Made by a program: the position numbers and the translations under genes. From positions 66,154,001-66,218,000 of the forward strand of contig OX597828.1 of the NCBI GenBank assembly GCA_951406725.2: 64,000 nt of DNA. Reading direction: 5' to 3'. This stretch comes from Octopus vulgaris (lineage: Eukaryota). Of the stretch, positions 32,296-64,000 are shown piece by piece; the first letter of the stretch is position 1, and the number at the start of each line of letters is the position of its first letter. The notes under the pieces are model-generated. The model was not told where the DNA came from, searched no databases, and was given only the letters and a program-made list of their open reading frames with translations.

Positions 32296-32448
32296 CTGTA
32301 AAAGAAAAAATAAACATTACTATTTGTAAATCTCACAATGAGAGACATTCAGCAACAGTACTTTGGAGTAAAGATTGTTTGCCAACATAACATGGCAGTC
32401 CTGGTTTAGGATGTAATTTAGCCCCAGGAAACATCGTCTCCAGCTGGC

Positions 32449-37536: not shown

Positions 37537-38354
37537 CTAAAATGGATAGAAAAAAAGAGACAAAGTTAAATAACAAAAATAACTTACATTAAAAAAAAAA
37601 AATTTGAGCAAAGTATCTTTTAAAATGTAAATTTTCAATTGAACAAAAATTATTTCAGCCAACTAAAATCCTAATATTAGTTTTTTAATCAAAAAATCAC
37701 AAGATGATTAAAATTTGAGAGAGTATTTTTCTTTATTAAAAAATATTTCAAATAAAGAATATTTTAGTTTGAAGTTAACAATAAAAATTTCTAGCTACCC
37801 AGAAATTAGTCAAGCAATGTTAACAAATATGTAACTGTCGTGATTATCAATGTAAGACAAATATATCAGCATTAGCTATATACAACTGAACAGATGTCAC
37901 TCTGATGCTTTTCATCTCAGTATACATACTTTTTTTTAAAGACCCAGTTAAAGTGTCCGATTCCATCAAACACTACATTATGATACATGTAATATGTATC
38001 CGAAAAAATATATATTATGAAACAAAAATAAACACAAAATTTATTACACGAATCTGTTACCACCACAACAGTCAACTATTTGACGCTGAACATGAGTTTG
38101 ATGTTGAATACATCCACAAATTTTCCACTCAGATAGCTTTTCCTAAGACTGCAAGACAGCGTAGAAGCATTGCCAGTCTATCTTTCTCACTAATTTGTTC
38201 ACCTTGCCTGCGAGCCATCTAAAGTTAATAATGATTCTGCTAATTCCACGTGTAAACATGTGTTGAATAGAACTCACTGAATAAATCTTAATTAACTGTG
38301 TTGTCAATTGTATGCACCTGACATATGCTAACGTGTATGCAGCCAGACTTTTCA

Positions 38355-38842
38355 CACAGAGGATACATAAGATCTGGTCATCAAATCTAAGTAGAGATTT
38401 CAAACTTAAAATCTTCAAAGACACAGTCGAACCAATTCTACAATATGGCTCAGAAACCTGGACGTTATCAAAGAAGCTTGAGAGGTGGTTAGATGGAACT
38501 TACACTTGTCTCCTTATGAGAGCTCAAAATCTCTCGTGGAAGCGTCATCCAACCAAAGTACAAATATATGGGAAATTACCACCTGTATCATCTCTTGTGA
38601 AAGGTAGAAGAGTCCAGTTTGCTGGACATTGTTGTAGAGCTGAAAACAAGGTAATTTCTACTCTTCTCCTCTGGAAGCCATCTGCTCGTGATACCAGCGG
38701 ATGCACACGCTCCTACCCTGATGTAATCTCCGGGGATACAGGCATCCAGCAACAGGACCTCCATAATGCTATGATGGACCGTGAAGTCTGGCGTAACATA
38801 GTAAATTCCATTGTCTCGACCACGGTCAAACAATGAATGAAT
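38355..38842 (+). mobile_element. RTE-clade LINE 3' end
   Basis: ORF 38312-38836 contains KLKIFKDTVEPILQYGSETWTL...RRVQFAGHC. Short ATGA-repeat tail. Confidence 0.85.
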
Positions 38843-39046
38843 AGTTTACACCCTTCCTGTGTACAAGCTATTATCTTCCAATTACAAGATATTCCACATC
38901 AGCAGGCAGACTATTCACTGCTGCTCCTGGCTCAAATATTTTTAACTGAACAAACAATTTCAAAATTTGAATATATAACCCCACCCCCGCTGCCCCTACG
39001 CTTCATAATGAAAACGTTGTCACATGTAGCATGAAAATATTATATA

Positions 39047-39700
39047 CTAGCAGAGATACCCGGCGTTGCCGTGTTACATGCAATTGAAGAATTAGACTTT
39101 TCTGTTATAAATAAATTTCATTCGCAAGATTATCTCCTGTTTTATATTAACTTTTGCTTCTTTTAAATAAAAGTTGATCAGTTTTAAAGTGACTTTCATG
39201 TACTTTAAATTGATGTTCGTTTGTTTTAAATAAAAGTTCATATGATTCAAATTAAAATTCATATAGTTTAAAATGCAGTTCGGTTGTTTAAATTCAAGAT
39301 TCATTTGTTTTAATTTGAGAGTGAAAAGGTGTAGATACACTCTCAGGAAGAAAAAAAAGATGGTTATTTATGTTTGAAAACTGATCAGAGGTCTGTTTGA
39401 CGTGTGACCTCTGCAGCTAATAATTATTTAAAAGTTCGTTTTAATAAAAAGATTTGCAATTAAGATGGTTTTTATATAGAAGCAAGAATTTTGAAAACAG
39501 TCAATATGAAGACAATCACGAAAGGTTGTCTCCCTTGTCTTATAATCCCACAAAAATGACAGTCGCAATTGGCCAAATTGATTGTATGGTGATGAAAATA
39601 TTGCATCTGAGGTGAACATATCTCACAGAACCACAGTGAGAGAGTACTGCGTAATTATTGTGTTTTTATTAGTTTTTCAGGGTTAAATTTTAATTCTGTG
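39047..39700 (-). mobile_element. Helitron 3' part containing a 21-bp degenerate minisatellite (39140-39320)
   Basis: The minus strand ends cacggcaacgccgggtatctctgCTAG|T. The far boundary is uncertain. Confidence 0.6.
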
Positions 39701-40483
39701 ATGGATAACTTAGGCTCAGTTTGTTTTACATTAGATGTTACCAACGTCGCCTTACTGGCCCCTGTGCTGGTGGCATGTGTAAAAAGATTTGAGCGAGGTC
39801 GTTGCCAGTACCACCTGACTGGCTCCCGTACCAGTGGCACGTAAAAAGCACCCACTACACTCTCGGAGTGGTTGGCGTTAGGAAGGGCATCCAGCTGTAG
39901 AAACTCTACCTGATCAAGATTGGAGTCTGGTGCAGCCATCTGGTTCGCCATCGCTCAGTCAAAATTGTCCAACCCATGCTAGCATGGAAAGCGGACGTTA
40001 AACGATGATGATGATGATGATGAAAATTTTACCACTTCATCTAAACTTGTAAATAGTGCAGTTTAGAAATGTTGCTCTCTTCATAAATGCTACAACATAC
40101 AATCTTTGGAAAAGGCATAAGAAAGCGGACGTTAAGTGATGATGATGATGATGATATCTTCAGAAGAGCCTTGACTATAGAATGGATGGAATCATCCACC
40201 CGACACACAAGTTCACAGTTTTATTCTTATCAAACGAAAATTTTGCAAATTAAGTCACTGAACATATGAAGACCACATTTTTTCCAGCATAAGACTTTAT
40301 GAAGACCACATTTTTTCCAGCATAAGACTTCATGAATACCAATATTTCCCAAATTTCTTCCTAGCATCATGAACTGCGGTTATGGGGATACGTAGAATTG
40401 AATCATCTAAGCGGGACAAACTGAAACTGTATTGATGGCCCAATACTTTACTTTACTTCTCTTTCTCTCACACAAATATGTAA

Positions 40484-40825
40484 TCTCTATATATATAAAC
40501 GGCAAAATGTCTGTCTGTGTCCTTTATACAGATCTACAATTTTTCAGTTAGAGGGCTCGCACTTTCTATGGTCATTCAAAACCGTCCAAGGGTGGTCGTG
40601 CACATCTTTACATTTCCCCAGTCACCCCGCAAAGCCATTAAAAAATCAATAGAAGTGACTTTTTTGTGAATTTTCTATCCAAAACCCAATCAAAATACCT
40701 GAAACTTGATACGCCAATTGAATGCCAGCTAGCTGTATGTGATTGGTCGGAGATTTGGACAGTACTCGCGTGTATGTGCGCATGCACTAGCACTATGACC
40801 CGGCAACGCAGGGTCATAGTGCTAG
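40484..40825 (+). mobile_element. Non-autonomous Helitron, copy 2
   Basis: A|TC start, gacccggcaacgcagggtc hairpin, CTAG|T end. Confidence 0.8.
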
Positions 40826-41823
40826 TTATATATATAATTATTATGGAAGATATGAAGAGTTTAGGTCAAGGTAACTCAAACTAAAAGGTATGCTTTCTGA
40901 GTGCTCCAACAGGTAATCCGCCAAAGTATAATTATGTGTATAGGTGCAGGTATGGCTCTGTGGTTAATGGAATTCACTTCAAAACCACATAATTTTAGGC
41001 TCAGTACTATTGCATGGTTGGTGCCTTTTACTATAGCCCTAGGCTAATTAAAGCCTTGTGAGTGTATCATAGGCACAAGGTGGCCTGTGTGGTAAGAAAC
41101 TTGTTTCCTAACCGCATGGTTCTGGGTTCAGTCCCACAGCATGGCACCTTGGGCAAGTGTCTTCTATTAGAGTCACAGCCTGACCAAAGCTTTGTGAGTG
41201 GATTTGGTAGGTAGAAACTAAAAGAAGCCGTGTGTATGTGTGTGTGTGTTTGCCCCCCTCCCCACCACCACTGCTTGATAATTGGTATTGGTGTGTTTGC
41301 ATCCCTGTAACATAGAAGTTTGGCAAAAGAGATTGATATAAGTACTGGGCTTTAAAAAGTAAGTCCTGAGGTTTATCTGTTCAACTAAGACCCTTCAAGG
41401 CAGTGCCCCAGCATGGCAACAGCCAAATGACAGAAACAAATAACAGATAAAAGGTAGGAAAAGTTATTGGCCAGCAGTTACAAGTGCTTCTCTCATGATC
41501 AACTGACCATATGTCGGATGCTCGAGAGAAGGAACACAATGTTTATAAAGAAGTATGGTAATTACTAATTTCAAATAAATGTTGTTTTTTTTTATTACAT
41601 GTGTTAATTTCTCTTGCCCCACATTCAGTCTCCTCACAGAATAATTTGCTGAAAATATTTTCCCATTTCAATTGGCTGGTCAAATTTTTAACCCATGCAA
41701 TACCAGGAAACTCTGCAATCCTCTGGTTGGCCAGTTCCTGTTGAACTATCCACCTCATGCCACAGACTTTAAATGATGATGATGACAATAATGACACATC
41801 TATATATAGATATATGTATAAAC

Positions 41824-42055
41824 AGCGGTGAGCTGGCAGACACGTTAGCACGGCGGGCAAAATACGTAGCCGTATTTCGTCTGTTGCTACGTTCCGAGTT
41901 CAAATTCCACCGAGGTTGACTTTGCCTTTCATCCTTTTGGGGTCGATAAATTAAGTACTAGTTACGCACTGGGGTCGATGTAATCGACTTAATCCTTTTG
42001 TCTGTCCTTGTTTGTCCCCTCTGTGTTTATCCCCTTGTGGGTAGTAAAGAAATAT
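41824..42055 (+). mobile_element. tRNA-derived SINE family A. Other copies at about 10745-10915(-), 12833-13072(-), 20820-21043(-), 31138-31350(+), 34300-34527(+)
   Basis: Head gagctggcaga with B-box gagttcaaattcc, core gactttgcctttcatcctttcggggtcgataaattaagtac, tail gtgggtagtaaagaaata. Confidence 0.85.
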
Positions 42056-42737
42056 ATATATACATATATGTATAAATATATACATAGACATGCAAATGTC
42101 CATGAATAAACATACCTATATTCATATATGTAAGTAAATTGTCATCATCCCCATTGTATTAACATTTACAGATGCCCTTCTTGACACCATCCCTAACCTG
42201 TTTCCAAGTAAGATAATAATTACCCAGTCTACTGAACAGTGAATAGCTCAAACAAGATATAGTGGACAACTTGAAACAAATGATACATTTTCGTATGAAT
42301 GGTGAGGTTTTGTTTACAGTCACGAGGTTGACTTTGCCTTTCATCCTTTTGGGGTCGATAAATTAAGTACTAGTTACACACTGGGGTCGATGTAATCGAC
42401 TTAATCCTTTTGTCTGTCCTTGTTTGTCCCCTCTGTGTTTATCCCCTTGTGGGTAGTAAAGAAATATATATATACACATATATGTATAAATATATACATA
42501 GACATACAAATGTCCATGAATAAACATACCTATATTCATATATGTAAGTAAATTGTCATCATCCCCATTGTATTAACATTTACAGATGCCCTTCTTGACA
42601 CCATCCCTAACCTGTTTCCAAGTAAGATAATAATTACCCAGTCTACTGAACAGTGAATAGCTCAAACAAGATATAGTGGACAACTTGAAACAAATGATAC
42701 ATTTTCGTATGAATGGTGAGGTTTTGTTTACAGTCAC
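41911..42737 (+). repeat. Near-perfect tandem duplication, unit about 412-414 bp
   Basis: 41911-42323 is repeated at 42323-42737 (SINE 3' half plus flanking sequence). Confidence 0.92.
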
Positions 42738-43214
42738 TGCACACATAACAAGAGTGAAAATATGTACTCACAGACACACACACATTCCATTTTTATATGT
42801 GGTTTGCAAGATGTGAACAAGTGTGTTGAAACAGATTTTGTTGTACCATGGGAGGGTCATTATACCAAAAATAAACATACACAGATTCAATTTCACTTCA
42901 TTATTATTATCATTTGTCAATTGGTTAGCTATTTAACCAATTGATTATTTGATTAATCATTCACTTAATCAATCCTGTTTGCCAAAGTCCTTTTGTTTCC
43001 ATATGCCGGTGGCACATAAAAAGCACCCACTACACTCTCGGAGTGGTTGGCGTTAGGAAGGGCATCAAGCTGTAGAATCACTGCCAAAATCAGACTGGAG
43101 CCTGGTGCAGCCAGTCTGGCTTCCCGGTCGAACTGTCCAACCCATGTTAGCATAGAAAATGGACATTAAACGATGATGATGATGATCTATTAATACAATA
43201 TTATTTTCGATGTA

Positions 43215-44413
43215 CAAGGGTTGGACAAAATAATGGAAACACCTTAAAATTTCACACTTGTACATACTTGTACAAAGTCTGAATTGTTTCCAAAGGAATT
43301 TTTGTCCATTCTTCAGCTAAAACAGTCTCCAGTTCTTGTAGTGATGATGGTGGAGGATATCGACTCCTTACTTGTTTTTCCAAAATGCACCATAAATGTT
43401 CAATAATATTAAGATCTGAGGACTGTGGTGGCCAGATAATATGTTCAACTTCACTAGAATGTTCCTCGTGCCATTCAGTAACAACTTTAGCTGTGTGAAT
43501 TGGTGCATTATCATCCTGAAAGATTGTGATTCCCTCCAGAAACAGTTCCGCAACCATAGGATGAATTTGATCAGATAAAATGCTTAAATAGTTTTGACTG
43601 TTAATTCTACCATGAAGGGAAACCATTGGGTTGGCGGATTTCCAAGATATAGCCCCTCAGATCATCACAGGTCCTCCTCCATGTTTAACAGTTGAAAGAA
43701 GGCAGTATGGGTCAAATGCTTCTTTTGGCTGTCTCCACATGTATACTCGGTTGGTGGTTGGAAATAAGGTAAAGGATGATTTGCCCGAGAAAATAACATT
43801 CTTCCACTGCTCTAGGGACTAATTCTATAGGTTTTTACTCCACTCTAAACGCTTTGCAATGTTTGTTTGGAAAACAGTAGGTTTCTGATTGCAGCCCTCC
43901 CCTGAAATCCAGCTTTGTGCAGCTCCCAGTGAACAGTTTTCATGGAAACTGGGTTCTCAAAGTGGTCATTAAGCTCTGCAGTAATTTTGGGAGCTGTACT
44001 TTTGTGATCCTTTCTAACAATTCGCATAAGAGTCCAACGGTCCCTATCTGAAAGTTTTGGTTTTCTTCCAGTGTCTTATTTCGACAAGGAGGTTTTCCCC
44101 TATTTCTCAAAGGCTGTTATTACTTTCGAGACAGTACTTCTTGATACACCAAACATTTCGGCTGTTTTCGTTACACTAGTGCCTGCCTTATGAGCATGAA
44201 CAATTTGATCTCTTTGAAAGTCCAATGGATCTGTCATTTTAATTACCTTTTTCTGATATCTGAAAAGAAACAGCAATTTTAGCAAAACATATTAAGTAAC
44301 ACTAATAATAAATCAAAAAACATAAAAATAAACAAGCTTTTGATGGTTTTATAGATATTTCAAAATTATGATGCTATGATGCTAGGTGTTTCCATTATTT
44401 TGTCCAACCCCTA
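43215..44413 (-). mobile_element. Tc1-like DNA transposon (about 1.2 kb, DD36E spacing), defective transposase
   Basis: About 30-bp TIRs (caagggttggacaaaataatggaaacacct / aggtgtttccattattttgtccaacccct) with TA flanks. Fragmented HTH and FQDDNAPIH...WPPQSSDLNIIE catalytic region. Confidence 0.92.
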
Positions 44414-45785
44414 TATATCTTCTGTGATGATTATTTTGCAATTCTCCTGCTCTTATTTTATGATATATAAATATATACTTATATATGTATGTATATATAC
44501 ATATATATATGCATGTATACATATATATGTATACATATACATATGTATATATACATATATATGTCGAAGAGCATAGGCTTGAAATGTATAAGACTTTCTC
44601 ACTTCCTGAGCATTAAACTAATACATCTGTTTGTTGTTTACACACCCGTCTTTGTCTTTTGTTAATTCTCACTATACACACACACACACACATATATAAG
44701 TGGCAAGTGAACTCCATAACCCTTTAGATTTCAGATTACTCTGTCAAATGTAATGCTTATTTATTCACACCATCTTGAATTAATCATGCATTATCTCAAA
44801 GCTCTATGAATTCAAAGATGTGATTATTTTTTGAATGATGTTGTAGAATAAATGTGGGAGGCCAGATCTGGCCTGTTCAAACATAAAACAAATTGAATAC
44901 GTGGGCTGGATATGGCCAGTTTAAATATATATGTATAAAATATGCATACATATATACATATAGAATTTGGTGAGACAGATTTTCTAAAACCAAATAACCT
45001 TCCCGTTACCAATTCTTACCTGTTTCCAAGCAAGGCAATATTTCCCCATCACCAAACATTTTCACAAAAGATAGGAAACAAAAATGATGATGATGGTGGT
45101 GTCAAGACAAGGAGATAGTGACAGACACACACAAATATATATATATATATATATATAGTGACAGACACACACAAATATATTATGATGGGCTTCTTTCAGT
45201 TTCTATCTACCATGTATGTGCCTGTGTTTGTCCCTCCACCATTGCAGTTCAGCAAAAGAGACTTACAAAGAATAAGTCCTGGGTTCAATTTGTTTGACTG
45301 ACAGGAGAATCTATCATTTTATATTCTATTACACACACACACACACACACACACATGTACTTGTTAGACTCATTGTCAGCAATATATTTTATGTATTTTA
45401 CTAGGTTTTGTTTCTGAGTTCAAATTTCCCTATTTGTTTCCTTAATGAGGTATGGCCTCTACATTATAGAATCTCTACAAAAAGACAGCCTCTTTTGATT
45501 TCTTAAAATTTATGAGACATAGAATCCAATACCTGCTACAAATCTAAATAGCCATAGTCGCAGTATTAATTAAAATATTTTCCCTTTATGTTTAAAGAAA
45601 GAAAAAGAATGGAAAGTACTGAATGGAAAATACCATCTGATAAAATGTTTTCGGAAATGACAATATCACAGATTATGATTTGTTGAAACTAACAAATAAA
45701 ATTAAAACATTTATTTGTAGTAATTCTTAATTTAGTTTAAAATTCAATATCTGTACAGAGTTAGAACAATTTTAATGATTTATTG

Positions 45786-46543
45786 GGAAGAGGTAGACCC
45801 AGGAAGACCTGGGATGAAGTGGTGAAGCACGACCTTCAAACATTAAGCCTCACCAAGGAAATGACTAGTGACCGAGACTTTTGGAAATATGCTGTGCTCG
45901 AGAAGACCCGGCAAGCCAAATGAGACCATAACCTGTGGCCTATGCCAGGAGCGTAACCAGCCCACTTATGCGTACCTTTCCTTCTTTGGTCACTAAACTC
46001 TGCTTGCGAAGACCTGTTGAGGCAAGTGAAATCAAAACCAAAATCAAATTCGATGACTGGCATTCGTGCTAGCGGGGTGCAAAGAGCACCATACGAGTGC
46101 GATCGTTGACAGAGCAGCTATTTGAGTATGATCATTACCAGTGTCGCCTTACTGGCACTTATGCCTGTGCTAGTAGAGTGCCAAGAGCACCATCCAAGTG
46201 TGATCGTTACCAGAGCAGCCAACTGGCTTCCATACCCGTGACACATAAAAGGGCACCATTCGAGCGTGATCGTTACCAACGTCACTTCACTGGCACTTGT
46301 AAAAAGATTCGAGCGAAGTCATTGCCAGTGCCGCCTGACTGGCCCCCGTGCTGGTGGCACGTAAAAAGCACCCACTACACTCTCGGAGTGGTTGGCGTTA
46401 GGAAAGGCATCCGGCTGTAGAAACTCTGCCAGATCAAGATTGGAGCCTGGTGCAGTCATCTGGCTCGCCAGCCCTCAGTCAAAATCTCCAACCCATGCTA
46501 GCATGGAAAGCGGACGTTAAACGTTGATGATGAATGATGATGA
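45786..46543 (+). mobile_element. RTE LINE 3' end: ORF C-terminus plus repeat-containing 3' UTR and (GAT)n tail
   Basis: GRGRPRKTWDEVVKHDLQTL...WKYAVLEKTRQAK* runs directly into the abundant ...ccaacccatgctagcatggaaagcggacgttaaac(gat)n tail. Confidence 0.85.
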
Positions 46544-49500
46544 TTGGGACTAAATTCTAATAGATTTTTTTCTCTCTAGCTAAGACACACATCATTTATT
46601 TGCAAAATACTTTAACCCTTTAGGATCCAGAACATTGTTTTGAACCAACATGAAATTTCACTGACATGATTATTCATTTTTAGAATGATATTATAAAAAG
46701 TAGAGGCCAGATCTGGTCAGTTTAAATATAAAACTGGTGGAATAATTTGGGCCAGACAAGGCCACTTTAAATGGTAAAGGGTCAATGACTAGTGTCAACT
46801 TTAAAAGTGATACTAAAAGTTTTACAAGCTTATGACTAGTGCCAGCAACTGCAACTATTATTACAGTACAACATTATTAATCCTAACTTCAAAGAGAAAA
46901 ATGAATCTGAAGACTATACTTGGACCTCATCCTGACAAAAACTCAAGGATGGATTTTGATTTCTATTGTAGGTTTCATGTCAGTAGCTGTTATGGCTGTT
47001 AAAATGGTGAAAATAAGAAGTAGGGTCCTGACTGACTTGAACAATTCAATCTTTGTTCTTAGTTTTCATTTTTCTTTTTTAACTTAATCAGCAGCAAGTA
47101 TAATAGGAATGGAAAATAATAAAACATTTTAATTATTGGTAAAAAAAAAAATGACTTTCCATTTTCACAAACTTTTGTGAGCAAACTAAAAATATTACAG
47201 CACATCAATTAATCAAAGCTGTCATGTTGAAGGTTATGTGTTAAATACAGAACTAGAATTAAATGTACCAAATTTTAGCAAGTTTTCTTTGACTTGATAT
47301 GAAATTACTAAGCAAAATAATATAAGCTGACATGCGATGCATCACATGTGAATAGAACCAGATGAGTGACTATTCCATGAATTAATCTGAGGTAGATCCA
47401 TTAATACAATAGAGATTTATTTTCAAATTTGCCTTTAAACATCTTAAAATACCACACAAAGCACCAAATAGAAAAGTGGGGTCAAATTTTTAAGGTTTCT
47501 CTTATTTTATTCATTTATAAACATTAAAAGATTCAATATAAACACAAATAATCATATATACTTTGAAAAAAAAAACAAAAGAAAGGCTTTTTAATATTAC
47601 TAATACTTATTCAGTAAGAGACTGAAAGTTAATAGTTACATAAATATATTCATGTATTTTACATTTAAAAAAATGGTATATATATCTTTTAAAAGTTCCA
47701 AGTTCTCAGAAAATAATTACATCATGTTTATATTGAAGTTTCAAAACCCAAAAAAAAAAAAAAAAAAAGAAAGATATATAACTATGAATTAAAGCTGGAA
47801 AAACACATGAGTAATTTGGTTTTCCATGCTAGCATGGCTTAAATGTTACATTGTGGGTAGGAGTGTAATTTTGCTTCCCACATTATCCATCATAAAGTCA
47901 GTTAAGTGGCAACCATAAATGATACCTCCATCTGTCAGTAGATGTAACAAAATTATCACCTCAAATTGAAGCTTGTCTTAACATTTACTTTATCAATTAA
48001 CTCCAAATTAAAAATGCATAATGAAATGTATTTTCTAAGTTAATAGTAAGAAAGTTGTCAAATGAAAATGACTAAAAATGTTTACCAGCCAGAGCACAGT
48101 CATCCACCTCTTTTATTTGAAGACAACTATCAAGAATTACATTTAATTTTAGTTTCAGCAATCAAAATGCTTTTATGAAGACAAAATCACAAAGTCAGCT
48201 TTGTTAATTAAACAAAACAGCAACAACATGAATAACAACAGTATACAGATAAAAAATTTGTTTCAAATACAAATATTAATTTATAAGGAAATGTGATGAA
48301 ACAACCAAAATACAACATTAAATACAAAAATTTGTTGAGCTGATGGAAAAAAAAAATGTTTTGAAGTCGGAACTACATAACTAAAACAATGCTTTCACTT
48401 CCACTTAAGAGAAACATCAGCATATTTCAAACATTCACTATCTCAGATTATCAGCTTAACCATTCTACTTTGTGTAATGATCTTTCAAAATATAACAGAT
48501 GTCAACTACTTTCTAATGGTTGTAAGAAGTATTCAAGATAACATCACTGTATACAACCAAAAGATCAGACTCGAACGTTCTCAGGTGAACTGCCTACACA
48601 TAGTCGAAGAAATTAAATCACAATAATCATAATAATTACTATTGAGGATATTCATGAGAAAACCATTATAGAAGAATTTAAATTACATATGCTGACACGT
48701 ACAAGCACACACACATGCACACGCGCACACACAAGCTCAAATATAAAGCAGATACTTCAATCATAAATCACACACAATTTTAGTACAATATAGTTAAGTC
48801 AAAGTTATAAATATATCATAGCAGCTCAAAGATAAAGACAATCAGATATTGAATATAAGATGCCAGCAGTAAAGACAAACACGTTTTATCAACTATAATG
48901 GTTGAATTAAAAAATTCCATGAATAATGTATCAAAAGACAGTTCAAATGATCCAAGTAATGGATATTTCAATATATATTTACAGTCATTGGTATCCACTG
49001 TGTGTGAATGTAGTTCAACTTGGAAAGAACAGAGGGGGGTCAGTTGGGTAAAAATTAGACAGTAAGAAACACTCAATTGTGTAATGAGTGGGTTGCTTCA
49101 CTTAAGTGTAGAACATAGTGAAGCGAGGGGGAGGGGGGTTGGCAGGGGCGCGGGGGGGAGGGAGAACACACACAACCTTTTCAGTCAGTGCTATACAATA
49201 TGCTGCCTTGCGAGCTGATCAACATCAAGAGAGCCCCCCACCCTGTACACCTTATGGTAGGAGAGGGTCATGACAAACAAAGTGTACCTTTCAATGGTAA
49301 CACAATTCAGATTAACAAGGTACTTTATGGTGTTATGAATAACAAAAATAACAATACAGAGAAAGAAGTAAACAACAACCTGAATAGACAACAAAGTCAA
49401 CTTGATTAACCAAGCCCAGAATCATGAAAGATGAGAGGAACCGAACAGGTAGCCCCTCACAAATCAAACACATTAACACACATATATACTAACATACATG

Positions 49501-51044: not shown

Positions 51045-51085
51045 ATATATACACACACATACACATAATACACACATGCATATGC

Positions 51086-51139
<54 letters not shown>

Positions 51140-51214
51140 TAAATATACATACATGCATATGCATTTTATATATATATATATATATATATACACATAAATA
51201 TACATACATGCATA

Positions 51215-51254
<40 letters not shown>

Positions 51255-51340
51255 AATATACATACATGCATATGCATTATATATATATATATACATACAT
51301 ACATGTGTGTACATATATAACATGCATATATACATACATT
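51045..51340. repeat. Higher-order tandem repeat of (TA)n plus acacataaatatacatacatgcatatgcat
   Basis: The unit recurs 3-4 times with variable TA length. Confidence 0.9.
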
Positions 51341-53176
51341 ATGAAAACAAAGAGAAAGATCTCTTGTTGAATAGTTTGTACATATCTTTTTTTATTAAAG
51401 AGGATTACTGGAATGTAGAAAAGAACATTTTTTCTTTGATTGAATAAACTGCTAAAATTTATTTATAGTGATCAGTTCATTAGTAAAATAGTAATTAATA
51501 TCAGAATCATCACATGATAGGAAAACCAATATTACAACATAACATCCTTAATTACTGCACTACAAGTTCATAACTAACTGCGGTCTAATGTCTAAAGCCA
51601 AAAAGGAAAGTGTATGAAGAAGTTTTATCTGCTTTGTTTGTTGGGTGGATGATCAAAATGTTATACAATAAACAATGAAAATGGTTGTGAAACAAAACCT
51701 AAAAATGGAATTAAAATAAACAATAAAGACACAGAAACAGGAGGAAGTTGACAGGTGTACAATGGATAGCTTTCTTGAAATCTCAGACAAGAAAATCTGA
51801 AAGCATTGTGCTATATACAGAGCTGTCAGATATATATTATTATCTGCAGCAAATTCAAGTGAAACATTTCAAGCACATACAATTTGAGACCTTCCTTTTT
51901 ACCATAACTCAGATCTTAGTGCAACTTCAGTTTTAATACATTAGAATTTCTAATGGGTTTAATACAGAAACCAAGCCTTGTTTCTTTATATTTACACAGA
52001 TTCAAAGATTTCAAAGAGAAATTCTTTACAAAATGTAATTCATATAATCTTGCTGTATATACCAAATATACCCCTCACCAATTACAGAATAATTATGTTA
52101 AGTTATAAACACTACACTACAAGTTTTACTGAAGAACTCAAATATATATTTTAATGTCTACATATATTTAATTATTAAGGAAATTAACTTAATATGACAA
52201 CACAATTCAAATATTTTCCAGCCCCTTTCCAAAATGCTAAAAATATGAACTTAATGTCAAAATTATACCACCCCATCTTGTAATATAAGAATTAATATAT
52301 CTTATACATTTCCAGATACTCGAAAATCTTACATGAAATTGTTAGATTCACCACTTCAGACTCAAACATGAATTTCCCTACTACAATGTTAGCAGATTTA
52401 AATAGGGGAAGAGGAGGAAATCTTTCTCTGGTAAAGGCGCCCTGTGAATGCTGACTGGACAGTTTAGGGTTCCACAAACAATTGAAATTTGTGTTTTTAA
52501 GACATCTATTCATTTCAGGTTTTGTTTTTGCTTTGTTTTTTTGCTTCCTTCTTTGGAAAGAAAAAAGACTTAATTTTTTTCAAATAATTAGTATTCTCTA
52601 ATGCTGTTTTAATAGTAAGTTTTTCAAATCATCAGAGAAAATATCTAATTTATAAATGGACATTTCCAACAGATGAAATTTATTGAACTAATATTTATCA
52701 AGGTTCAAAGTTGTGTCTTTAGGGCTTTTTGCAAAGTAAAAACAGATTACTTTGTTAAATTAGAAATAATACTTTATAAGTTAAACGATAATCTACTTAG
52801 GATAGTTCTGACATGTTCAGTCATTTAGGTTAAAAACTGCACCAATAAATCAATTTAACAGCTTATAAAAAGAATCATAACAAAGAGACTTTTTGCTGAA
52901 TATGCTTTAGAGTCATAATAATTTGTTTAAAAAATTGTAAAACAAATTTCCCTTGAAAAACAAATTTTTAAAGTTATTGAAGAGTTGGTAAATATTATTA
53001 CATCTCAGTTATTATTCAAAAGAGACACACATGAAATAAAATTATAATAGATATAAAGTTGTGTAATTGAAGTGATTAAAATGTGGTAAAAAGAATCCTA
53101 CATTTTCATAACTGCATATTACAAGCAACTTGTAATCAAAGAAAATTTCAGGCAATTTCTTAATGCTAAAGAGATC

Positions 53177-53210
<34 letters not shown>

Positions 53211-56200
53211 TACAATTATAAAACGGGGAAAAACAAAGATGTAATTGAAGTATCAATCATGACTAGATTTGTTGCCATGGAATAAATTTAAAAAATAGAC
53301 CTTGTAAGTATTTTCAGCAAAGTTCGAAGTGTCTTACTGAGGTATTGAATGGTTGAAACAAAGCCCTATCACCAATAACATTTGAAACAGTCAACAAATC
53401 TAAGTCAATAATTATTGAACTAGCACCTTAATAGGTTGCTTCAGATGAAAGAGAAACTGTGAAAACTTGAGGCACAATATTAGATCCATTTGAATGCAAG
53501 ATATAACTAAACAAAAGAAGTGAATAAAAACCCTTCTAAAATGCAGGAAAGGAATAATTCTATTGATACCATTTTAATCCACTCAGAAGAGGAATCAGCC
53601 TAAGTCACTTACCCCAAAAAAATTTGTAAAAAAAAAATTTTTTAAAAATCAAAAAAAAATCAAAATGAAACTAGTTGAAAAGAAAACTTCAGAAAGATAT
53701 ATGGAAAAGAACTTGACAGGTTTAACTTTAAAACAAAATAATTTCAGGTTAATACCACTATAATAGATCTATATAAAAAATACTTGTGATATTGAATAAC
53801 AAAGATATTTAGTTAGCTATTTTCTTTTTCACTTAAATTCAACAACAGTAAAAGGTTTAAAGTAATTGAAAGATATTTCAAATATCTGTTGAAGGCTGTA
53901 TAAATAACTTTACCACATTAACCAAATTGACAGTCAAGCCCAGATCTTATTATATTCACAACAGTCAAACCTTTTCGCAGGGTATTATCATCACTGAATT
54001 GAAAATACATTATTTTTCTCTAAGAATAACAGCATTCTCCAAATTGAAAGAAAAGCTTTTACAAAAGCATGAAGGTATATCGTAGTGGGAAGAGTGTAAT
54101 AAGGTTATACAACTGTAGAAGACAAATTGAAGAAAATGATAACCTCGATCTGTGTTGGACTGGAGTGTTACTTCAAACCCTATACAACATCAATCAGTTG
54201 ATGACTAACACATGAAAAATCACACAAATAGCATAACTCAGTTTAGAAAATGTTGACAAAAGGAGTGAAAGATATTTTCCCTATGTTAATATTCCAAACA
54301 GGAAGTTACAAGAGCCATATCATACACATAAAGCTGGAAGAAGGATGAAATAGTATAAATATCAATGAATTAGATTAGAATTTACTAACAGACATGAAAG
54401 ATACATATGCTATATCAAAGTTTACGAGTTGGTTCATAAAAATACCATTATATGAATAATTGATAATAAAACTAAATATAAAAATGTACAACTGTAATCA
54501 CCGGGATGTACCATCATTTAGTTTTTATCATGTTATTTTTTTAAGTATGCACAAAAAAAAAAAAAAATTAAATAAAAAGCTAAAAATGCTTTTCTAAACA
54601 GTGCATGTTGATATTGAGCTTGGATTCTGGACATTCCATAGGGTTTTGTGTGTGTGTGTGTGAAATTTTTTATTTAATTATGTACAAGGATAAAGATAAA
54701 ACCTTGTAAATTGCCCATTCTTCTCATCTTTTGTGTGCATGGATCATTAGAATACTTTAAAGTCTTACAGTGGAATGCAGCTTCAGAAATATGATTTTCA
54801 AACTTTACATCTTGTTCTTGTTGCTCTGTCTTCTAAATTTTATCTCATAACTAAATTTGCTGCAAGTGTTTTTAGAACAACTTGCCCCTAGTGTAACCTA
54901 TCAGTAAATCCATCATATATATACAATCAATTGAAGCATATGATAAACAAAAGACAATAATATCAGGAAAAATGTACAAAGAATATATACTAAATTTTAG
55001 TGTGTGTGTGTGTTATTTAATATATCATACAAAAATTGAGTCTTAGACTGCTTGATTTTTGCAAAAAAACATCTTTAACTTCACTAAGATGTAACTGTAT
55101 TAACATAAGATTTTCTAATACAACTTTCATGGGTGAATTTCATATAAAAAGTGGCTCCATTACAATTACTTGCTGCAGCAAGAGGTGAATTAGCAGAAAA
55201 TCACATAGAATATGGTGAGGTATTTGGTCTGGATCTCTGTACTCAGAGTACAAATTTTGCCAAAATGCTAATGATGAAGGTGAATCATCTGACCACTGGA
55301 CTACTTTGACCACCTTGTAATAGGCCAGCATGGACAAGTAGGCCTACAACTAGAGAAGAAAATATGGCAATGGCTTGATGAGACTTCATTTAGCAGTAAG
55401 TCAAAAATGACAATGGAAACAGCATGTATTCTGTATACAGACAAGATGAAGATTTTATGCAATCTAGGCTTATTTGCCAAGAAGAAATAATCAGCAACAT
55501 CACATTACTCCTGGCTCTCTGTTCTGGCAGTGAATGAGCTTACTACAAAATCATAGGACCCAAATACTAATATCAACCTTAACGTTTAGAATCAACACCA
55601 ATATCCAAAATACAGGTAACCTCAAAATCAGGAAATGGCTTTTATGCAGCAAATTCCAGCTAACCAATTTCATTGCAGCAGTGTAGCTCACAAATGATGT
55701 ATCTCACACATACACAAAGTTAGTTTGTGATTTATTCAGAAAGAAGTTTCATAAAAAGAAACAAAAATATTTATACACACACACACACACTCACACACAA
55801 ACAGATCATATCCATTTAAAATAGATCAATATTTTACAATAAGGGAGAGCTGGTTTGATGGCCATGACAACATCGTAGTTGTTGATTACATAAATATTAA
55901 TGAGATGAAGGCATGAAATGAGAGCAGAGGAGGAGACACTTGACAAAAATGATTTCCTCTTCTATATTTCTTATGTTTTGTTGCAACATTTACAGGAAGT
56001 TAGCAGCTTAGTAAGAAAATTCTATTAACTACCCCATTGCATCTTTAGCACAGCATAAAGAGGTTGTAATAGATTTCAAAACCACAAAGGTACTAACCAG
56101 CAACTTTATTGAAACTAGCTGTATATAAACTACAAGATTAGTTTACAGAGAGGGAAAAAAAAAGTTATTCTCCTATTCACATTCAAGAAGAATATCCAAC

Positions 56201-56529
56201 TTTTAATAATACAAGATGTATTTATCTTATTTGATTGCATTCCACAATTTTATAGTGCTACTGAATTAGGAATGTGTTCTATCATACATAACACATACAT
56301 AACATTTAGACTGAATACAACCAGAACGATGAGAGAGAAAAACAACCAAGGAAAATCTCAAACAACATCAATATGAAAGAATGAAAGCTCAAAATAAATT
56401 AAAATTTCTAATCAATAACAAATAATACTGGAAATTAGCAGTTGTAAACAACTATTTTATACAAAAAAAAGGATTTCTATATTTGATGAATGAAATGAAT
56501 GTAAGAGTGCGATGAGAGACAACCAATAC

Positions 56530-56560
<31 letters not shown>

Positions 56561-57834
56561 CTTCAATATATAGAGCATTGCAATGTTCTAGATTCAAATG
56601 AAAGTAAGAATGATGGGAAACAGTCGATATATGTGTGCACTATGGTACTTCAATGTTCTAGGTTCAAATGCTGTCAGGGTTAACATTGCTACCAAAATTT
56701 TGAAAGATTGATAATATATAAGAGTCACTATTGGAATTGATTCAATAGACTATGTACACCACATCCTGGCCAAACATTGGCCTTCTGATATCTATTATCT
56801 ATCACAAATAGGAAAACATTTAAGGAATTGGTACTATAAATTCTTTCAAGAAATAAAAATGAGAAGTAAAACTAACTTCCTAAATTATATGCAATCTGAA
56901 TTTCTAAAATTTTACATATCTAGCAATGAAAAAATAAATTAACAAACAAGTGAAATATAAACAACCCGGGGGCAGTTCATTATCATAATTATCTCTGCAA
57001 ATGCTGTAACCAAATATAAACTACTGCACAAGGCAGAAATAAATTGAAAACAGATGTCATTTATAGAAAATTACTAATTATATATATATAGTTACTAAAG
57101 TTACATTTAAGAATTTCTCCATCTAAAGGACCCATAAGAATTTAAGTACCACAATTGAGAAATTAAAAATATATATAGATATATTGAGAATCAATTTAAA
57201 ATGGAATTTCTAAGTGGAAGGAAAAAGAAATTTCAACACATGAACAGGAACATGAGAATGTACATAATCTCTAACTTACAGAGCTGTGATGGAATTTCAA
57301 TAAACACAAATTCAATGAAACAACAGTCATTTGTATATAAATTGAAAATGTATATTCTTACAAATGATAAATCATGCACTTGAAAATCTAAAGTATGGAA
57401 CACAGATGAAATTTTTTTAAATCCCTATTTTCTCTTTTGTCAACCAACTGTCCAAGAAAAAGAAAAAAAATTTCAACAGAAATGACGCTATTTTATTACT
57501 TTCATGCTAACCACATATCAAGTCTTTTAGAGTCATATAATTTTAAGAAACATTTAAGATGCTTATAATTATATAAAATCAAAAGCAATATGTATGTGAG
57601 GTATTTGACATGCCATATCATTATAATTAGTAAATAAGCATGAGAAACTTTTAATGCTTTGCTCAAAAATTAGACAAATAGGGAAAAATCGAGTTATCCA
57701 TTATAGTTCCATAAATACAAACAAAAAGTCACTTCTTTGAATTTTATCCTTAATTGTTAAGTAATTTAAAAAAGAAGCCTCTGAGGGCTTCTGACCATCT
57801 CAAAAAAGCAATAATCTCATAAGAAGGAGGATGT

Positions 57835-58872
57835 TTAAACAAAATTTGGTTTAGCTGGATATTGGCAACCATAGTGCTGAATGACAACTTTGGCAGCATA
57901 AAAACCACACCTGACACAATCCTGTACTGAGCGGCCAAGAACCCATTGGGACAAGAACCCACCAACAAAAGAATCCCCACAACCATTTGTATCTTTAATA
58001 AGATCATGGTCTACAGTTTCCACTGGATATTCAGATACTTTTCCTCCTTGTGCTACTATAGTGGGGTCCCTGCCCTGGGTGAAAACAACAATGCGCTCTC
58101 TTTCTGAATTAACTTTTGGCAATGCTGCCACCTGTAGCGCCATTTGCTTCAAGTCCTTATTTGGGAATCCCATTATAGAACAAAATTCAGCAGCTTCGTC
58201 ACTGTTACCAAAAAGAATATCTATGTAAGGTAAGATATTTATTTTGGGGTCAGCAAACATACTGCAGAGGAAAGTCGCATGCAAGTTTATAACCATAGTC
58301 TTTTTATTCTCAGTACTATGATGTGCTAGGGCAAGAACTGATTCTTTACTAACAGGGAGAATAAACCCGCCAGCATAATAACACTGAGCAGCTTCTACTA
58401 ACTTCCAGTTCTCAGGTTTTTTCAAGAAATCAACGCAGAAGTGTTGGGCAGCCCCCAATTCTGTCACGAGCGATCGGTCTTCTCCAGTTATTATTGCCCC
58501 ACAAACACCAGTTTGAACATCACTGTGGACTTGATAGCGCACATTCACACCAACATCAATAGACTTCTTTTTCAAAATCTCAGCATATTTATCCTGGCCT
58601 ACACCACCAAAAAATGTGGTAGCATTTGGTTTCTGCAGAAGCCACTGTGCTACACGCACACTATTAAGGGTGGCACCTCCAGGTAAATATTCCGGTTTGT
58701 AATTTTTCACCATCTCCTCATAGAGAGGATGGTGAACTTCTGCAGCTATGATAGCATTGTTAGCTAGTAAACCATATTTATCGAGTAATGCGTTGTCTGG
58801 GCAAACAACAGTAATGTCAAGAAGAGGATTTCCAAGCCCAAGGAGAATTCCTTCGGATACAGTGTCAGCCAT
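57835..58872 (-). CDS. ADK: Adenosine kinase (PfkB/ribokinase family), single coding exon, 345 aa
   Basis: The ORF carries ADK motifs GLGNPLLD, PGGATLNS, GEDRSLV, LFGNxxEA, VFTQGRD, DTNGCGDSFVGGF and C-terminal GCQYPAKP. It is the same length as the short vertebrate ADK isoform. A splice acceptor (tttttctctctattttcag, AG at 58889-58888) lies 15 nt before the ATG. Confidence 0.97.
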   Translation of the reverse strand: MADTVSEGILLGLGNPLLDITVVCPDNALLDKYGLLANNAIIAAEVHHPLYEEMVKNYKPEYLPGGATLNSVRVAQWLLQKPNATTFFGGVGQDKYAEILKKKSIDVGVNVRYQVHSDVQTGVCGAIITGEDRSLVTELGAAQHFCVDFLKKPENWKLVEAAQCYYAGGFILPVSKESVLALAHHSTENKKTMVINLHATFLCSMFADPKINILPYIDILFGNSDEAAEFCSIMGFPNKDLKQMALQVAALPKVNSERERIVVFTQGRDPTIVAQGGKVSEYPVETVDHDLIKDTNGCGDSFVGGFLSQWVLGRSVQDCVRCGFYAAKVVIQHYGCQYPAKPNFV

Positions 58873-59737
58873 TTTGGTGGAGAAATTCTGAAAATAGAGA
58901 GAAAAATATTATATGATAAACAGAATTAAGTATTACATCTACTTTGTACAATGTATATATATAATTCAAAAGTACAAAAACTTCCAACATATCCTTTTAC
59001 CAGTCACATAACTGTGGCCATGCTGGGGCACCACCTTTAAAGGTTTAATTGACTGTATTAACCCCTGGTCATTAATTTACCAACGTTTGTTGAGCCACTA
59101 AGTTATAGAAAGATGTACAACATAATCACAGGCATACAGACATATACATATTTTATGAGCTTCTTTACTATTTCAGTCTAATAATTTCCACCCACAAGGT
59201 ATGGGTTAACTTGAGGCTATGGGAAAGACATTTGTCCAACTTTTTAATGACTAAAAGAAAAAAAAACGCATGCACTCTTCCTCCAATATGTAGAGATACT
59301 CATCTATTGCACAAACCGTATGCATTTGCATGAAATGCATAGCAAGGTTCTAAAATAGTAAAGACAAAAACAAAACAGTCTGAAATAGCTACCTTACAAC
59401 AACCTACATAATGAGAACCAGATTCTGGTATAATGTAACATGGTAAGAAATACTCCTTTAGCTATACTATACGTTGAAGAAACTGGTTCATTATATTTAG
59501 AATAAAAGGCTGGTAAAATGTCTTGTCATGCACACAGTTGTTCCCATTTCCTAGCTCTTGTCATTTGTAATGAAAACAAATTAAAAACTGAACTGAATGC
59601 AAACTAAAAAATAGACAATTCAAACGGAAATGTTTTTGAAATTTAACAGGTCATAAAATTGGCTTCCTTACGTATAACAGTTTCAAATTTCCTGTGTTCA
59701 AATACAGCATAGTTACTACTACAACTGATATGTCAAA

Positions 59738-59965
59738 CATTATATAATCAACATAAAATAAATCTAAAGGGAAAAAAAATCTACAACGAGATTTATGTGT
59801 GTATATACATATACACATTATGTAATCAACATAAAATGAATCTAAAGGGAAAAATCTACAACGAAATTTATGTGTGTATATAGATATACACATTATGTAA
59901 TCAACATAAACTGAATCTAAAGGGATTTAATCAACAGTGAACTTTCTGTGTGTAAATACATATAC
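59738..59965. repeat. Minisatellite, about 75-bp unit, about 3 copies
   Basis: cattatgtaatcaacataaaatgaatctaaaggg...tgtgtgtatata repeated. Confidence 0.85.
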
Positions 59966-60714
59966 ATCCATAAATAGATGTATGTATTGTATGTATACAA
60001 TATACTGCATATATATTTTACATAGAAGAGATTACATGCAAAAATAAACATTATGTAACAATATTAGATTATGGACAGCAAAGTTAGTTAAACACGCTTC
60101 ACGGTGAGTGTTATAAAGGATGAGAAGCATTAAAAAGTTACTTCAATAAAATTATGCAGTAAGAAAAAAACAATACTCATCAATGACTAATTAATTATTC
60201 TAACAATTATAGGAGACACTTCCCCAGCCAGACAGGTTTCGGATTTATTTCACCTTTTCAGTGAATTAAATAAATATTTCTCCAAAACCTATCAGCATAG
60301 AAACAAATATAGATGAACTATATAACAACAATTTTGGATGAAAGGCTTAAATCACAGTCAGAATTATTCTACATATAACTTAAATATATTGCTATTATAA
60401 AAAAATTATTAACATTTAACTATTTTTAAATATCTTGAACCTAACTTTTTGAAATTAATCCTTGAATATCAACTGAAATTTTGAATTTTGTTCTTTACAT
60501 AAATTTTTGCTTATATATTGCCTGTTCTTGAATATATATCTTAAAAATCAAACTAAAATTTTCAGAAGCAGCATTTCCAATAACTTAGGAATCTAGGAAA
60601 GTTAAAGATTATCCTAAACTAAAGAAACCAAATTTGATGGATTGCAAAATGGATATGTATTTTGAATATGAAGGAAAAAGGTAGATGGTAAAAGAAAGAA
60701 AGCAAAACATTTAC

Positions 60715-60857
60715 CCGCAAACTTCAACAGATAACTTGTTTTGAGTTGACAAACGTTCTAACTAAACTTGCAGTGACTGCAAAACTATCATCGTCATCTA
60801 AGGAACTGTTATTGGATACATCTATCACAGTAACAGCAGTTGGAGATAAAAGACTAC
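60715..60857 (-). other. Putative upstream exon of the ADK transcript
   Basis: ttacttaatag acceptor and CGG|gtaaat donor. One frame is open for 43 codons, then TGA 9 nt before the donor. The acceptor polypyrimidine tract is weak. Confidence 0.4.
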
Positions 60858-61329
60858 CTATTAAGTAAATAGCTTTCACTTATTTCATAAAGTAATAAGT
60901 TGTATGCTACAGAGTTCAGCAGCTGCTTTGTCAAATTACAGGGAGGGAAAAAAAAATCTATTTTAAGCTTGGAGAAGTTTTAAATGTCAGTAGCCTTACT
61001 CCAATAATGTTGTCATGCAGTTAAGTAATATAATTCTTTAAATATAGAATAACTAATGAATTGAGAGGAGGACTAAATGAAAAAATTAAAAGTGTAGATA
61101 AACTATTTCTAGTCAGCAGTATTAAGATATAAGATTACAGCAGGTCGGATGTACTTCAGCTTTTTTAAATTTTAATTTTGAAGTTGTCTCCCTTACCTTT
61201 GGAAAAAGAATTCTCATTATACTTTTCTTCCTTTCTTTATGAGTAAAATTTTGATTAAATATATATATTTTTTAATTCACTTCATTAAGTATGTTAAGTA
61301 CCCACTTATGTCTGTGTTATTCATGCTGA

Positions 61330-61720
61330 AAGCATCCCAAGGAAATTTTCCCACGTTGTTATTGATCCATCATTCTTAACTGCCAACATCTCAAAGATGC
61401 AAGCATGGTTAGCAATTACTGTCTCACTACTTTAAACCTCTATCTCTTCTTGGTAACCATCAAGTTCTGTAGAGGACTTCAGTGGAAACAGCGTTGTTCT
61501 CTGTGACATCAGCAAATCTTGGCATGAGTATCTACTAGTTCAGCTTACCATTTCTTAGATGAAATGCCCAATTAAACTTCACTGTTGTATGTGCTACAAA
61601 GACCTCTATATTTCAAATTGTTAACTTTGTGATGCAATGTGGTTTGGTTGTGCCTCCAACACTAATACTGTCCTACATTAACGAGCTTCTTACTGCTACC
61701 TCTAATACATACTCCTATAC
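61330..61720 (+). mobile_element. Highly decayed LINE RT relic
   Basis: Weak resemblance to RT segments (DISK, SYTD). No ORF. Confidence 0.3.
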
Positions 61721-63123
61721 AGATACAAGACTGACTTCATCCCTAACGTAACACGAGATTCAGGCAACATCCAGATGCTACCCATTTAACCTTTTAGCAT
61801 TCAAATTACTTTGTCAAATGTAATGCATATTTATACACATTGCCTTGAATTACTCATGCATATCCTGTAACTATTTTTAGAATGACACTGTAGGGTAGGT
61901 ATGAGGGGCTGAATCTAGTAATTTTGCATGTAAAAATAGAATATTTTGGATCAGATATGGCCAGTTTAAATTCATCCAAAAATAACAGAATTTATGCCAC
62001 TCTAAAGATGTTAATTTGAAAATTAATTCTTAATCTTAAAAGTTTGAGATGATTTAAGTGTCAAAAAATTTTAACATTATAGAAATGGTACAGTCAATAG
62101 AATTCACAGTAGTACAAGACTAATATATATTTTATTGATTACAGGAGGATAAAAGGCAAGGTTGATTCAGCTGGCATTTCAACACAATGGTAAATGGACA
62201 TAGCTGGAGAAAAGATTAGTGTTGAGAGAGGGCGAGAGAGAGAATGTGTGTGTGAGAGAAAGTTAAGTAGGTAGGTACTGTTGTCACCATAATTACTAAC
62301 AAGTTTGGATTAAAAAAAATGGAATTTTAAGTGCAAGTTAATACAATGGAACACAAACTTCAAAAAATGACAATATGTATATATATGATACATGGTTATT
62401 TGTGTGTGTGTGTGTATTTATTTATACATAATTAGGATAAAGTCATAATTTAATTATTTATCAATGGCCAGCATACTAACAAGACCTTAATGGGTTAATT
62501 TATATCTAAATATAATTTTATTTGTTTCAGTCATTTAACTGCAGCCATGCTGGAGCACCGCCTTTTAGTCAAACAAATCAAATCCAAGATTTATTCTTTG
62601 TAAACTTGGTACTTATTCCATTGGTGTCTTTTGTTGAACCACTAAGTTATGAGGACATAAACACATCAACATCGGCTGTCAAGCAATAGTGGGGAGCCAA
62701 ACACAGACACACATAATCATCATCATCATCGTTTAACGTTGGTTTTTCCATGCTGTCATAGGTTGGACGGTTTGACTGGGGACTGGCAAGCCAGGAGGCT
62801 GCACCAGGCTAGAGTCTGACCTGGCAATGTTTCTACAGCTGGATGCCCTTCCTAAAGCCAACCATTCCAAGAGTGTAGTGGGTGCTTTTTATGTGCCACC
62901 AGCACGGGAGCCAGTCAGGCGGAACAGGCATCGGCCACGTTCAGATGGTGCTTTTTACATGCCACCAGTGGGCTTCTTTCAGTTTCCATCAACCAAATCC
63001 ACTCACAAAGCTTTGGTCGGCCTCACGCTATAGTAAAAAGACACTTGCCCAAGGTTCCACGCAGTGGGACTCAACCTAGAACCACGTGGTTGGGAAACAA
63101 GCTTCTTACCATACAGCCACATT

Positions 63124-63165
<42 letters not shown>

Positions 63166-64000
63166 TTTATTTTCTATTATTAATGTTCATCAAGAAAGTC
63201 AATCTAAACATTATTTGCACAATTTATGAAGGTACATGCATGATTTAGAAATATTTTTAGCTGGAAGCATAGCAATGAATTTGAACAAGTAATTATAATA
63301 TTACAGAAGTGAACAGAAAAGTAACGTAGCTCTATGCATTAGGACTATATCAAATTTTTATGCTCCAGCATGGCTGCAGTCTGAAACAAGTAAAAGAATA
63401 TATGGTTCTAGGTTCAGTCCCACCTTGGGCAGGTGTCTTCTACTATAGCTTCAGGCCAACCAAAGCCTCATGAGTGGATTTGGTAGACATAAATTGAAAG
63501 AAGCCCATCGTATATATACATATTTATCTCTGTGTGTGTCTTTGTGTCTGTGCTTGCTCCTCACCATCACCACTTGACAATGGTGTTGATGTGTTTATGT
63601 CTAAGTTAGCAGTTCAGCAAAAGAGACTGATAGAATAAGTACTACACTTAAAAACATAAGTCCAGGGATCATTTTATTCAACTAAAACACCTCAAGGTGG
63701 TGCTCTAGCATGGCCGCAGTCAGATGACTGAAACAAGTAAAAGAATAAAAGAATATATATATATATATATATCCAATTTCCATCTGTACATTGCACAAGT
63801 GGAAAGGTGCATAATTTTGTGAAGCTATGAACAGATTTACAGAGACATGTTTCAAACATTGAAAGAAGCAACAGTAATGTTCGTATGTATTGCCAAAGTT
63901 TTCCAATAAAAGATTTGAATATAATAAGTATGCCTGTCTTCTAAGATGTATTTAAGAGAGGAAATAAATAGGCTCCAGCAATAAAGAGAAAAAACTTAAC

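Follow-up and report, generated by a model that had tools for sequence, protein, structure and literature searches.

In a 64,000-nt stretch of the Octopus vulgaris genome (contig OX597828.1, positions 66,154,001 to 66,218,000; hereafter the window) an intact, intron-free adenosine kinase (ADK) gene lies within intron 2 of MRPL24, the gene of the mitoribosomal protein uL24m, and on the same strand. The nested gene would be a retrocopy that is read mainly from 5′ exons of its own, while a minor splice form would connect a coding exon of the host gene to ADK and yield a putatively mitochondrial fusion protein. Taken as a whole, this proposal is favored here with modest confidence, and its parts are weighed separately below.

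Positions beyond 64,000 are given as extended positions, i.e. the position on contig OX597828.1 minus 66,154,000, and the searched span was 184 kb, consisting of the 64-kb window and the adjoining 120 kb of the 2.8-Gb genome. All parts of MRPL24 and ADK are located on the minus strand. The KOW exon of MRPL24 (VEIL...GLNY, 37441..37536) has its first position at 37536 behind TTTTAG and begins in phase 0, as stated in the original prediction, which had been made from the window alone. Three further coding exons were placed by tblastn, namely KYEELY...DPSDQ (36101..36208), an exon with approximate boundaries (33457..33599) and the last coding exon (ETAKD...TYRY stop, 32159..32296, start approximate). 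That prediction had also found the N-terminal exon missing from 37537-64000, and tblastn as well as a six-frame hidden Markov model search indeed gave a single match at extended 87222-86959, 23 kb past the window; a second copy was not detected in the 184 kb by the six-frame profile search. This exon 2 (extended 86959-87239) harbors the ATG at 87222, 88 codons up to GDR and the phase-0 donor GACAGG↓GTAAGT (arrows mark splice or cleavage positions), 28,071 nt from the ADK acceptor. With it the complete set of MRPL24 coding exons including the N-terminal extension is mapped, preceded by a non-coding exon 1 (donor at extended 91633) that is reached by contigs in three of the four sequencing runs considered. 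The identity of uL24m follows from PF00467 (KOW) and PF17136 (L24), both above cut-off, and from an E-value of 2.7e-44 to 4ce4_Y; residues 45 onward of the 88-residue segment encoded by exon 2 align to solved uL24m.

The contigs stem from public runs that were guessed to be RNA or whose type is unrecorded, and their weight rests on the GT-AG exon joins they contain. In all four runs (three studies) exon 2 is joined directly to the KOW exon at 37536. Since transcript-type contigs make this join throughout, an assembly error is unlikely, and intron 2 therefore has a length of 49,422 nt with ADK inside. Its in-window portion (37537..64000) continues to extended 86958, so that the previously claimed intron of more than 26 kb around ADK is contig-supported, contrary to a misassembly, and considerably longer.

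The ADK open reading frame (ORF; 57835..58872) encodes 345 amino acids and, according to ORF and homology, corresponds to a short, likely cytosolic form. Its product is 99.4% identical to the Octopus sinensis protein, on which the PfkB profile PF00294 was scored (193.8 bits versus a cut-off of 25.8), and residues 4-344 align to the best solved ADKs with E-values of 2e-116 to 5e-104. The segments GNPLLD, PGGAT, NSDE and DTNGCGD are all present, which we take to be the motif of the substrate Asp, the GG switch, the NxxE motif and the anion-hole GxGD, respectively. With the family motifs intact, the nested gene is, judged by its sequence, an adenosine kinase of the PfkB family. The splice acceptor with pyrimidine tract and CAG (58888..58905) is followed by an open in-frame leader, NFSTK (58873..58887), which extends to the initial Met. 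The region reads TTTTCTCTCTATTTTCAG↓AAT TTC TCC ACC AAA ATG, with the AG at 58889-58888 and pyrimidines at 14 of 15 upstream positions; its earlier description as a strong, phase-0 acceptor that is stop-free up to the Met thus holds. The 3′ untranslated region (57227..57834 by the extent of contigs, which end at 57227-57600) contains ATTAAA at 57655 and AATAAA at 57497. At position 58263 the genome has T and the contigs of all four runs have C (A to G in the mRNA), which changes Ser204 to Gly. An allelic difference is a more probable cause than A-to-I editing, because Gly is found at residue 204 in the O. sinensis models and Ser in O. bimaculoides.

A second Octopus ADK with at least 9 coding exons is located on another chromosome (C29:5,333,753-5,361,836, from exon mapping). 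About 150 nt upstream of one of its exons, a diverged duplicate of that exon is observed. In a tree of 116 ADK sequences (quick method, support by the Shimodaira-Hasegawa-like approximate likelihood ratio test (SH-aLRT) only, midpoint root, two rows skipped by the parser and three omitted beforehand) the window ADK falls into a 67-row clade (SH-aLRT 99), in which every named row is from a mollusc and which is adjoined by nemertean sequences. The canonical clade of 17 rows is split off by a branch of 0.40 (SH-aLRT 100) and comprises second gastropod copies as well as ADKs of echinoderms, hemichordates, cnidarians and plants. Precisely these 17 rows are the top 17 BLAST matches of the C29 ADK, in whose ranking the window ADK appears 41st. 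Because both the tree and this ranking separate it from the canonical clade, the nested ADK is, by sequence comparison, a duplicate within a lophotrochozoan paralogue group. As is characteristic of a retrogene, it lacks introns in its coding sequence while a paralogue with several exons exists elsewhere in the genome, and the loss of all introns therefore indicates retroposition. Most likely it is an ancient retrocopy, the alternative being DNA duplication followed by intron loss. The retroposition would predate the mollusc-nemertean split, and at such an age neither a poly(A) remnant nor a target-site duplication would be expected to persist.

Linkage in other animals was read from consecutive ADK and uL24m accessions, which indicate neighborhood, not nesting. 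Such pairs are present in Aplysia (XP_005096570/571), the chiton Liolophura (XP_064607913/914), Littorina (KAK7115891/892), Haliotis rufescens (XP_046370694-698/699), Biomphalaria pfeifferi (KAK0058006/007) and the nemertean Lineus (XP_064618867-872/873-874); in Physella the two accession numbers are 35 apart, the scaffold length being identical for both. Among the records looked up, none was a uL24m of Lingula, Owenia, Tubulanus or Lamellibrachia. Merged gene models display the order MRPL24 N-terminus (GDR), ADK, KOW in Batillaria, which amounts to nesting, and ADK, KOW in Mytilus edulis. From accessions and merged models together, ADK and MRPL24 are neighbors in chiton, gastropods, bivalves and a nemertean, and the pairing appears to be old and retained across molluscs. 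Many short unnamed ORF calls, some of them resembling uL24m of fish or insects, become non-matching just past GDR-V or a similar sequence, which suggests that the MRPL24 host intron predates its guest. In a Physella model a bit of the MRPL24 N-terminus and the start of KOW are fused behind a BAR-domain protein.

For the transcription of ADK, contigs from four runs of four studies were mapped over 56500-64000. All four depart from the genome at or near the acceptor, three of them at 58889 and one ending at 58879. One contig (run X1) passes from the acceptor to an exon A at 74537, and another (run X8) contains a GT-AG joint 58887-60715 leading to an exon B. The contigs of the two remaining runs (X2 and X5) extend 279 and 275 nt past the acceptor; these lengths fit exon A ending at a TA tract, so that the contig ends may represent this exon, and a fusion of the Lys type described below that ends in AG is also compatible. 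Exon A (extended 74537 to ~74875), with the donor AAAAAG↓GTAAGT, is likely the own first exon of ADK, whereas exon B (60715..60734, 5′ edge inferred) is a short exon of the 5′ untranslated region. Each of the two contains a stop in the ADK frame, three codons ahead of the donor in exon B, and the product of these transcripts is therefore the ADK of 345 residues. Exon C (59672..59710), the coding part of an alternative 5′ exon of RefSeq O. sinensis isoform X3, is found in a model only; it has no contig cover in the four runs and was excluded from the evidence. Within exon A (extended 74646-74537) there are several upstream ATGs, one of which opens an out-of-frame reading frame of 77 codons overlapping the ADK start that could dampen ADK translation.

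Exon A is situated in a 7-kb stretch (71-78 kb) that has retained its CpG dinucleotides, with an observed/expected ratio of 0.98; the remaining intron has 0.30-0.35, and the start of MRPL24 has 0.78. Young repeats were considered as a source of this signal and, within the 184 kb compared, rejected: of the 7001 nt, 178 have matches in other parts of this span, and the ratio is 0.98 without them. By its composition the region would be unmethylated and promoter-like, presumably the own promoter of ADK, and this promoter is very probably the main source of ADK transcripts. The mutually exclusive products from one promoter that had originally been envisaged do not hold as the main mode, since 58887 is joined to ADK-specific exons in both of the junctions that could be read and a separate CpG-retaining region exists.

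Joined at their phase-0 boundaries, MRPL24 exon 2 and the ADK exon form an open frame of 438 amino acids. Corresponding fusion models are contained in RefSeq for O. sinensis (three, XP_036365859-61), O. bimaculoides (XP_014786114 and XP_052829198) and Haliotis cracherodii (XP_071103973), the RefSeq numbering treating uL24m as an isoform of the ADK locus in these three species, and in GenBank for Pinctada, Bulinus, Biomphalaria glabrata and Batillaria. The idea that the MRPL24 donor splices to either exon thus stands with respect to the phase match, the open frame and the RefSeq models, but not with respect to the contigs, which show the KOW join alone.

Several observations weigh against the fusion. 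A contig leading from the MRPL24 donor to ADK was found in none of the four runs, all four being continuous into KOW; the contigs were mapped in segments of at most 20 kb while donor and acceptor are 28 kb apart, and a short fusion contig would have been invisible as a joint. As described above, both readable ADK junctions involve ADK-specific intronic 5′ exons. All four fusion rows among 52 profile matches are genome-derived models and none originates from a Logan transcript assembly; fusions are absent from the nine members of the nearest non-Octopus cluster, and a profile search of 1.84 billion representatives returned 106 matches with one already-known fusion and no further one. Furthermore, gene predictors plainly mis-merge ADK and MRPL24 in Mytilus edulis and Batillaria, and the GenBank fusion models are therefore weak evidence. 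The RefSeq X1 proteins of both other octopuses contain an extra Lys (GDR-K-NFST), and the junction sequences of the fusion models are not conserved in general. Between donor and ADK the genome studied here offers three weak AG↓AAR↓GT candidates, which were rejected as a source of the Lys, and lacks a YAG↓GTRAG ratchet site; exon A has an in-frame AAG as its final triplet, yet no acceptor precedes it in this genome. Since contigs lose rare forms, the null result in four runs is nevertheless compatible with a minor fusion, and we regard the existence of such a splice form as fairly probable.

The N-terminus of MRPL24 must carry uL24m into mitochondria. In all of 12 hand-picked MRPL24-type N-termini (one being the Pinctada fusion) the first 15 residues comprise two to four R/K and zero D/E; the octopus N-terminus has a hydrophobic moment of 0.71, and the whole 88-residue segment contains 19 R/K versus 9 D/E. 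At the octopus fusion junction the Arg of the MRPL24 exon meets the NFSTK leader to give R-N-F↓S-T. The published motif of cleavage by the mitochondrial processing peptidase plus ICP55 is RX(F/Y/I/L)↓(S/A)(S/T) (PMC8847149). The pattern RX[FYIL][SA][ST] is present in 8 of 46 leaders of the nested group versus 0 of 1069 catalytic-core windows (shuffle mean 0.57; none of 2000 shuffles reached 8), the eight leaders representing about five lineages and not eight independent cases. A second pattern, [FY][ST][STAKN], was chosen post hoc and occurs in 27 of 51 leaders versus 41 of 1091 core windows.

A further 29 leaders are long without being related to MRPL24. Ten of them (mussel, oyster, Mactra; several from Logan) have 50-63 residues with 9-14 R/K and 0-2 D/E, the other 19 being of mixed composition, and by this measure the leaders of the bivalve ADK orthologues look like presequences. 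A hydrophobic run up to an in-frame Gln, as would be produced by an unspliced CAG acceptor, was recognized by eye in 15 of 32 non-NCBI leaders of at least 11 residues; a script rule for unspliced phase-0 acceptors marked 12 of 17 leaders and is noisy, with visible errors in both directions. A non-coding leader would need no frame, and the ADK exon is most simply understood as the acceptor of a targeting exon located upstream. Two findings speak against mitochondrial targeting through the host exon: its second half is mature uL24m sequence and the exon thus exceeds a presequence in length, and the strict motif is located at only one of eight fusion junctions (Octopus X2). A protein atlas contained no usable match for the mussel leader; for the fusion N-terminus it gave scores of 0.76-0.78 to small mitoribosomal proteins, all below 0.9 and to be taken as leads only. 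From composition and motif the octopus fusion would be predicted to be mitochondrial. Short basic, acid-free N-terminal extensions of ADK were also noted in Hydractinia, Lineus and Tubulanus, one of them on an ADK of the canonical clade, and organelle-targeted forms of the enzyme may accordingly be more widespread than the nested paralogue.

In the reading preferred here, an ADK retrocopy lodged in MRPL24 intron 2 on the same strand and is read chiefly from its own intronic 5′ exons, which would make the cytosolic 345-residue protein the main product. Splicing of the MRPL24 coding exon to the ADK exon, as a minor event, would give rise to the 438-residue fusion, for which mitochondrial import and cleavage at the R-N-F↓S-T site are envisaged. 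The phase-0 acceptor and open leader would have been retained since the ADK exon takes an upstream targeting exon, presumably a private one in mussels and oysters, with octopus and abalone using that of the host. Stop and 3′ end come with the ADK exon itself, and each fusion mRNA would therefore take the place of one MRPL24 mRNA. That a working matrix ADK is made through the shared MRPL24 exon can be put forward only tentatively. Equally speculative is the broader picture of a lophotrochozoan matrix ADK more than 500 million years old, which would have arisen when an ADK retrocopy inserted downstream of the MRPL24 targeting exon, with a shared exon in octopus and abalone and a private presequence in bivalves, in which splicing trades a mitoribosomal subunit for adenosine salvage.

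The alternative that survives best is an ordinary nested retrogene, in which ADK is fully independent and the fusion models reflect splicing leakage or annotation stitching without a useful protein. The four runs devoid of fusion contigs, the ADK-specific exons with their in-frame stops, the CpG-retaining region at 71-78 kb, the evidently mis-merged models and the unconserved fusion junctions are all in agreement with it. It accounts less readily for the recurrence of the RefSeq fusion in three species, twice in O. bimaculoides, for a leader that stays open and in phase 0 in the eye and script counts given above, and for the post hoc motif enrichment in the leaders; we hold it to be a real possibility, though not a probable one. 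A functional fusion outside mitochondria, the 88-residue segment serving as an RNA-binding or nuclear tag or the splice lowering MRPL24 output, is improbable: the exon is basic, and mammalian ADK employs an alternative form for nuclear location (PMC8160517), but the bivalve leaders are presequence-like and the same N-terminus has to take uL24m to mitochondria. A single MRPL24 promoter for both genes with the fusion as the main ADK product, although in keeping with the open 438-residue frame and with the treatment of ADK and uL24m as one RefSeq locus, is highly unlikely in view of the ADK-specific junctions, the lack of fusion contigs in four runs and the separate promoter-like intronic region.

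If the preferred reading of a minor, mitochondrially imported fusion is correct, the octopus would possess a third ADK compartment beside the cytoplasmic and nuclear forms of mammals, and the locus would be an animal counterpart of the shared-presequence locus sdh2-rps14 of grasses. A matrix ADK could replenish the adenine-nucleotide pool of the organelle from adenosine, with a possible bearing on the low-oxygen tolerance of molluscs. Apart from the fusion, which is already in RefSeq as a predicted isoform, the ADK-MRPL24 pair, kept in lineages ranging from chitons through cephalopods to nemerteans, can serve as a synteny marker and accounts for recurrent mis-merged gene models. In the literature searched, which included few subscription journals and in which genome-paper supplements might list the locus, nothing was found on an ADK-MRPL24 locus or a mitochondrial ADK.

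Remnants of mobile elements are also present. A DDE_3 transposase fragment (43252-43656, minus strand; Pfam) lies within the MRPL24 intron, and broken LINE-like pieces are located on the plus strand at 28842-30576 and 38285-38836, with an RVT_1 match only at 29851-30573 and no Pfam match in the other two frames.

In the grass sdh2-rps14 locus a guest gene in a host intron shares the first exon and the targeting peptide of its host (PMC1543663). Like rps14, the octopus ADK occupies as a guest an intron of a nuclear gene that encodes a mitochondrial protein, in an arrangement of long conservation, and it is confirmed to lie on the same strand behind the first coding exon. Alternative splicing joins the first coding exon of the host to the guest in grasses; in octopus this join is represented by RefSeq models and by none of the contigs from four runs. 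Whereas rps14 is a transferred mitochondrial gene, the octopus guest was copied from a gene whose product is normally cytosolic; the fusion is predicted and would be a minor form at most, and the lineage is animal and older. Furthermore, the 5′ exons A and B belong to ADK itself, which does not depend on the host promoter, for which reason the locus is not classed as one of the sdh2-rps14 type.

Retrocopies spliced to host exons are known from TRIM5-CypA, jingwei and Taf9 in Ak6 (PMC5470649, PMC4772013). With these the octopus locus would share a retrocopy within a host gene, its splicing to upstream host exons and the acquisition of 5′ exons by older retrogenes. Contrary to them, MRPL24 is intact and the main user of its donor, and the borrowed exon would contribute a location signal instead of a domain. 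Mammalian ADK-S and ADK-L, whose described forms are cytoplasmic and nuclear (PMC8160517), likewise combine a single catalytic core with alternative forms for different compartments, whereas the form proposed here would be mitochondrial and derives from a separate lophotrochozoan paralogue. GLUD2 is a retrogene with altered mitochondrial targeting as well (PMC5470649), but there the change was brought about by substitutions in an inherited signal and not by borrowing an exon from the host, as would be the case for the nested ADK of the octopus.

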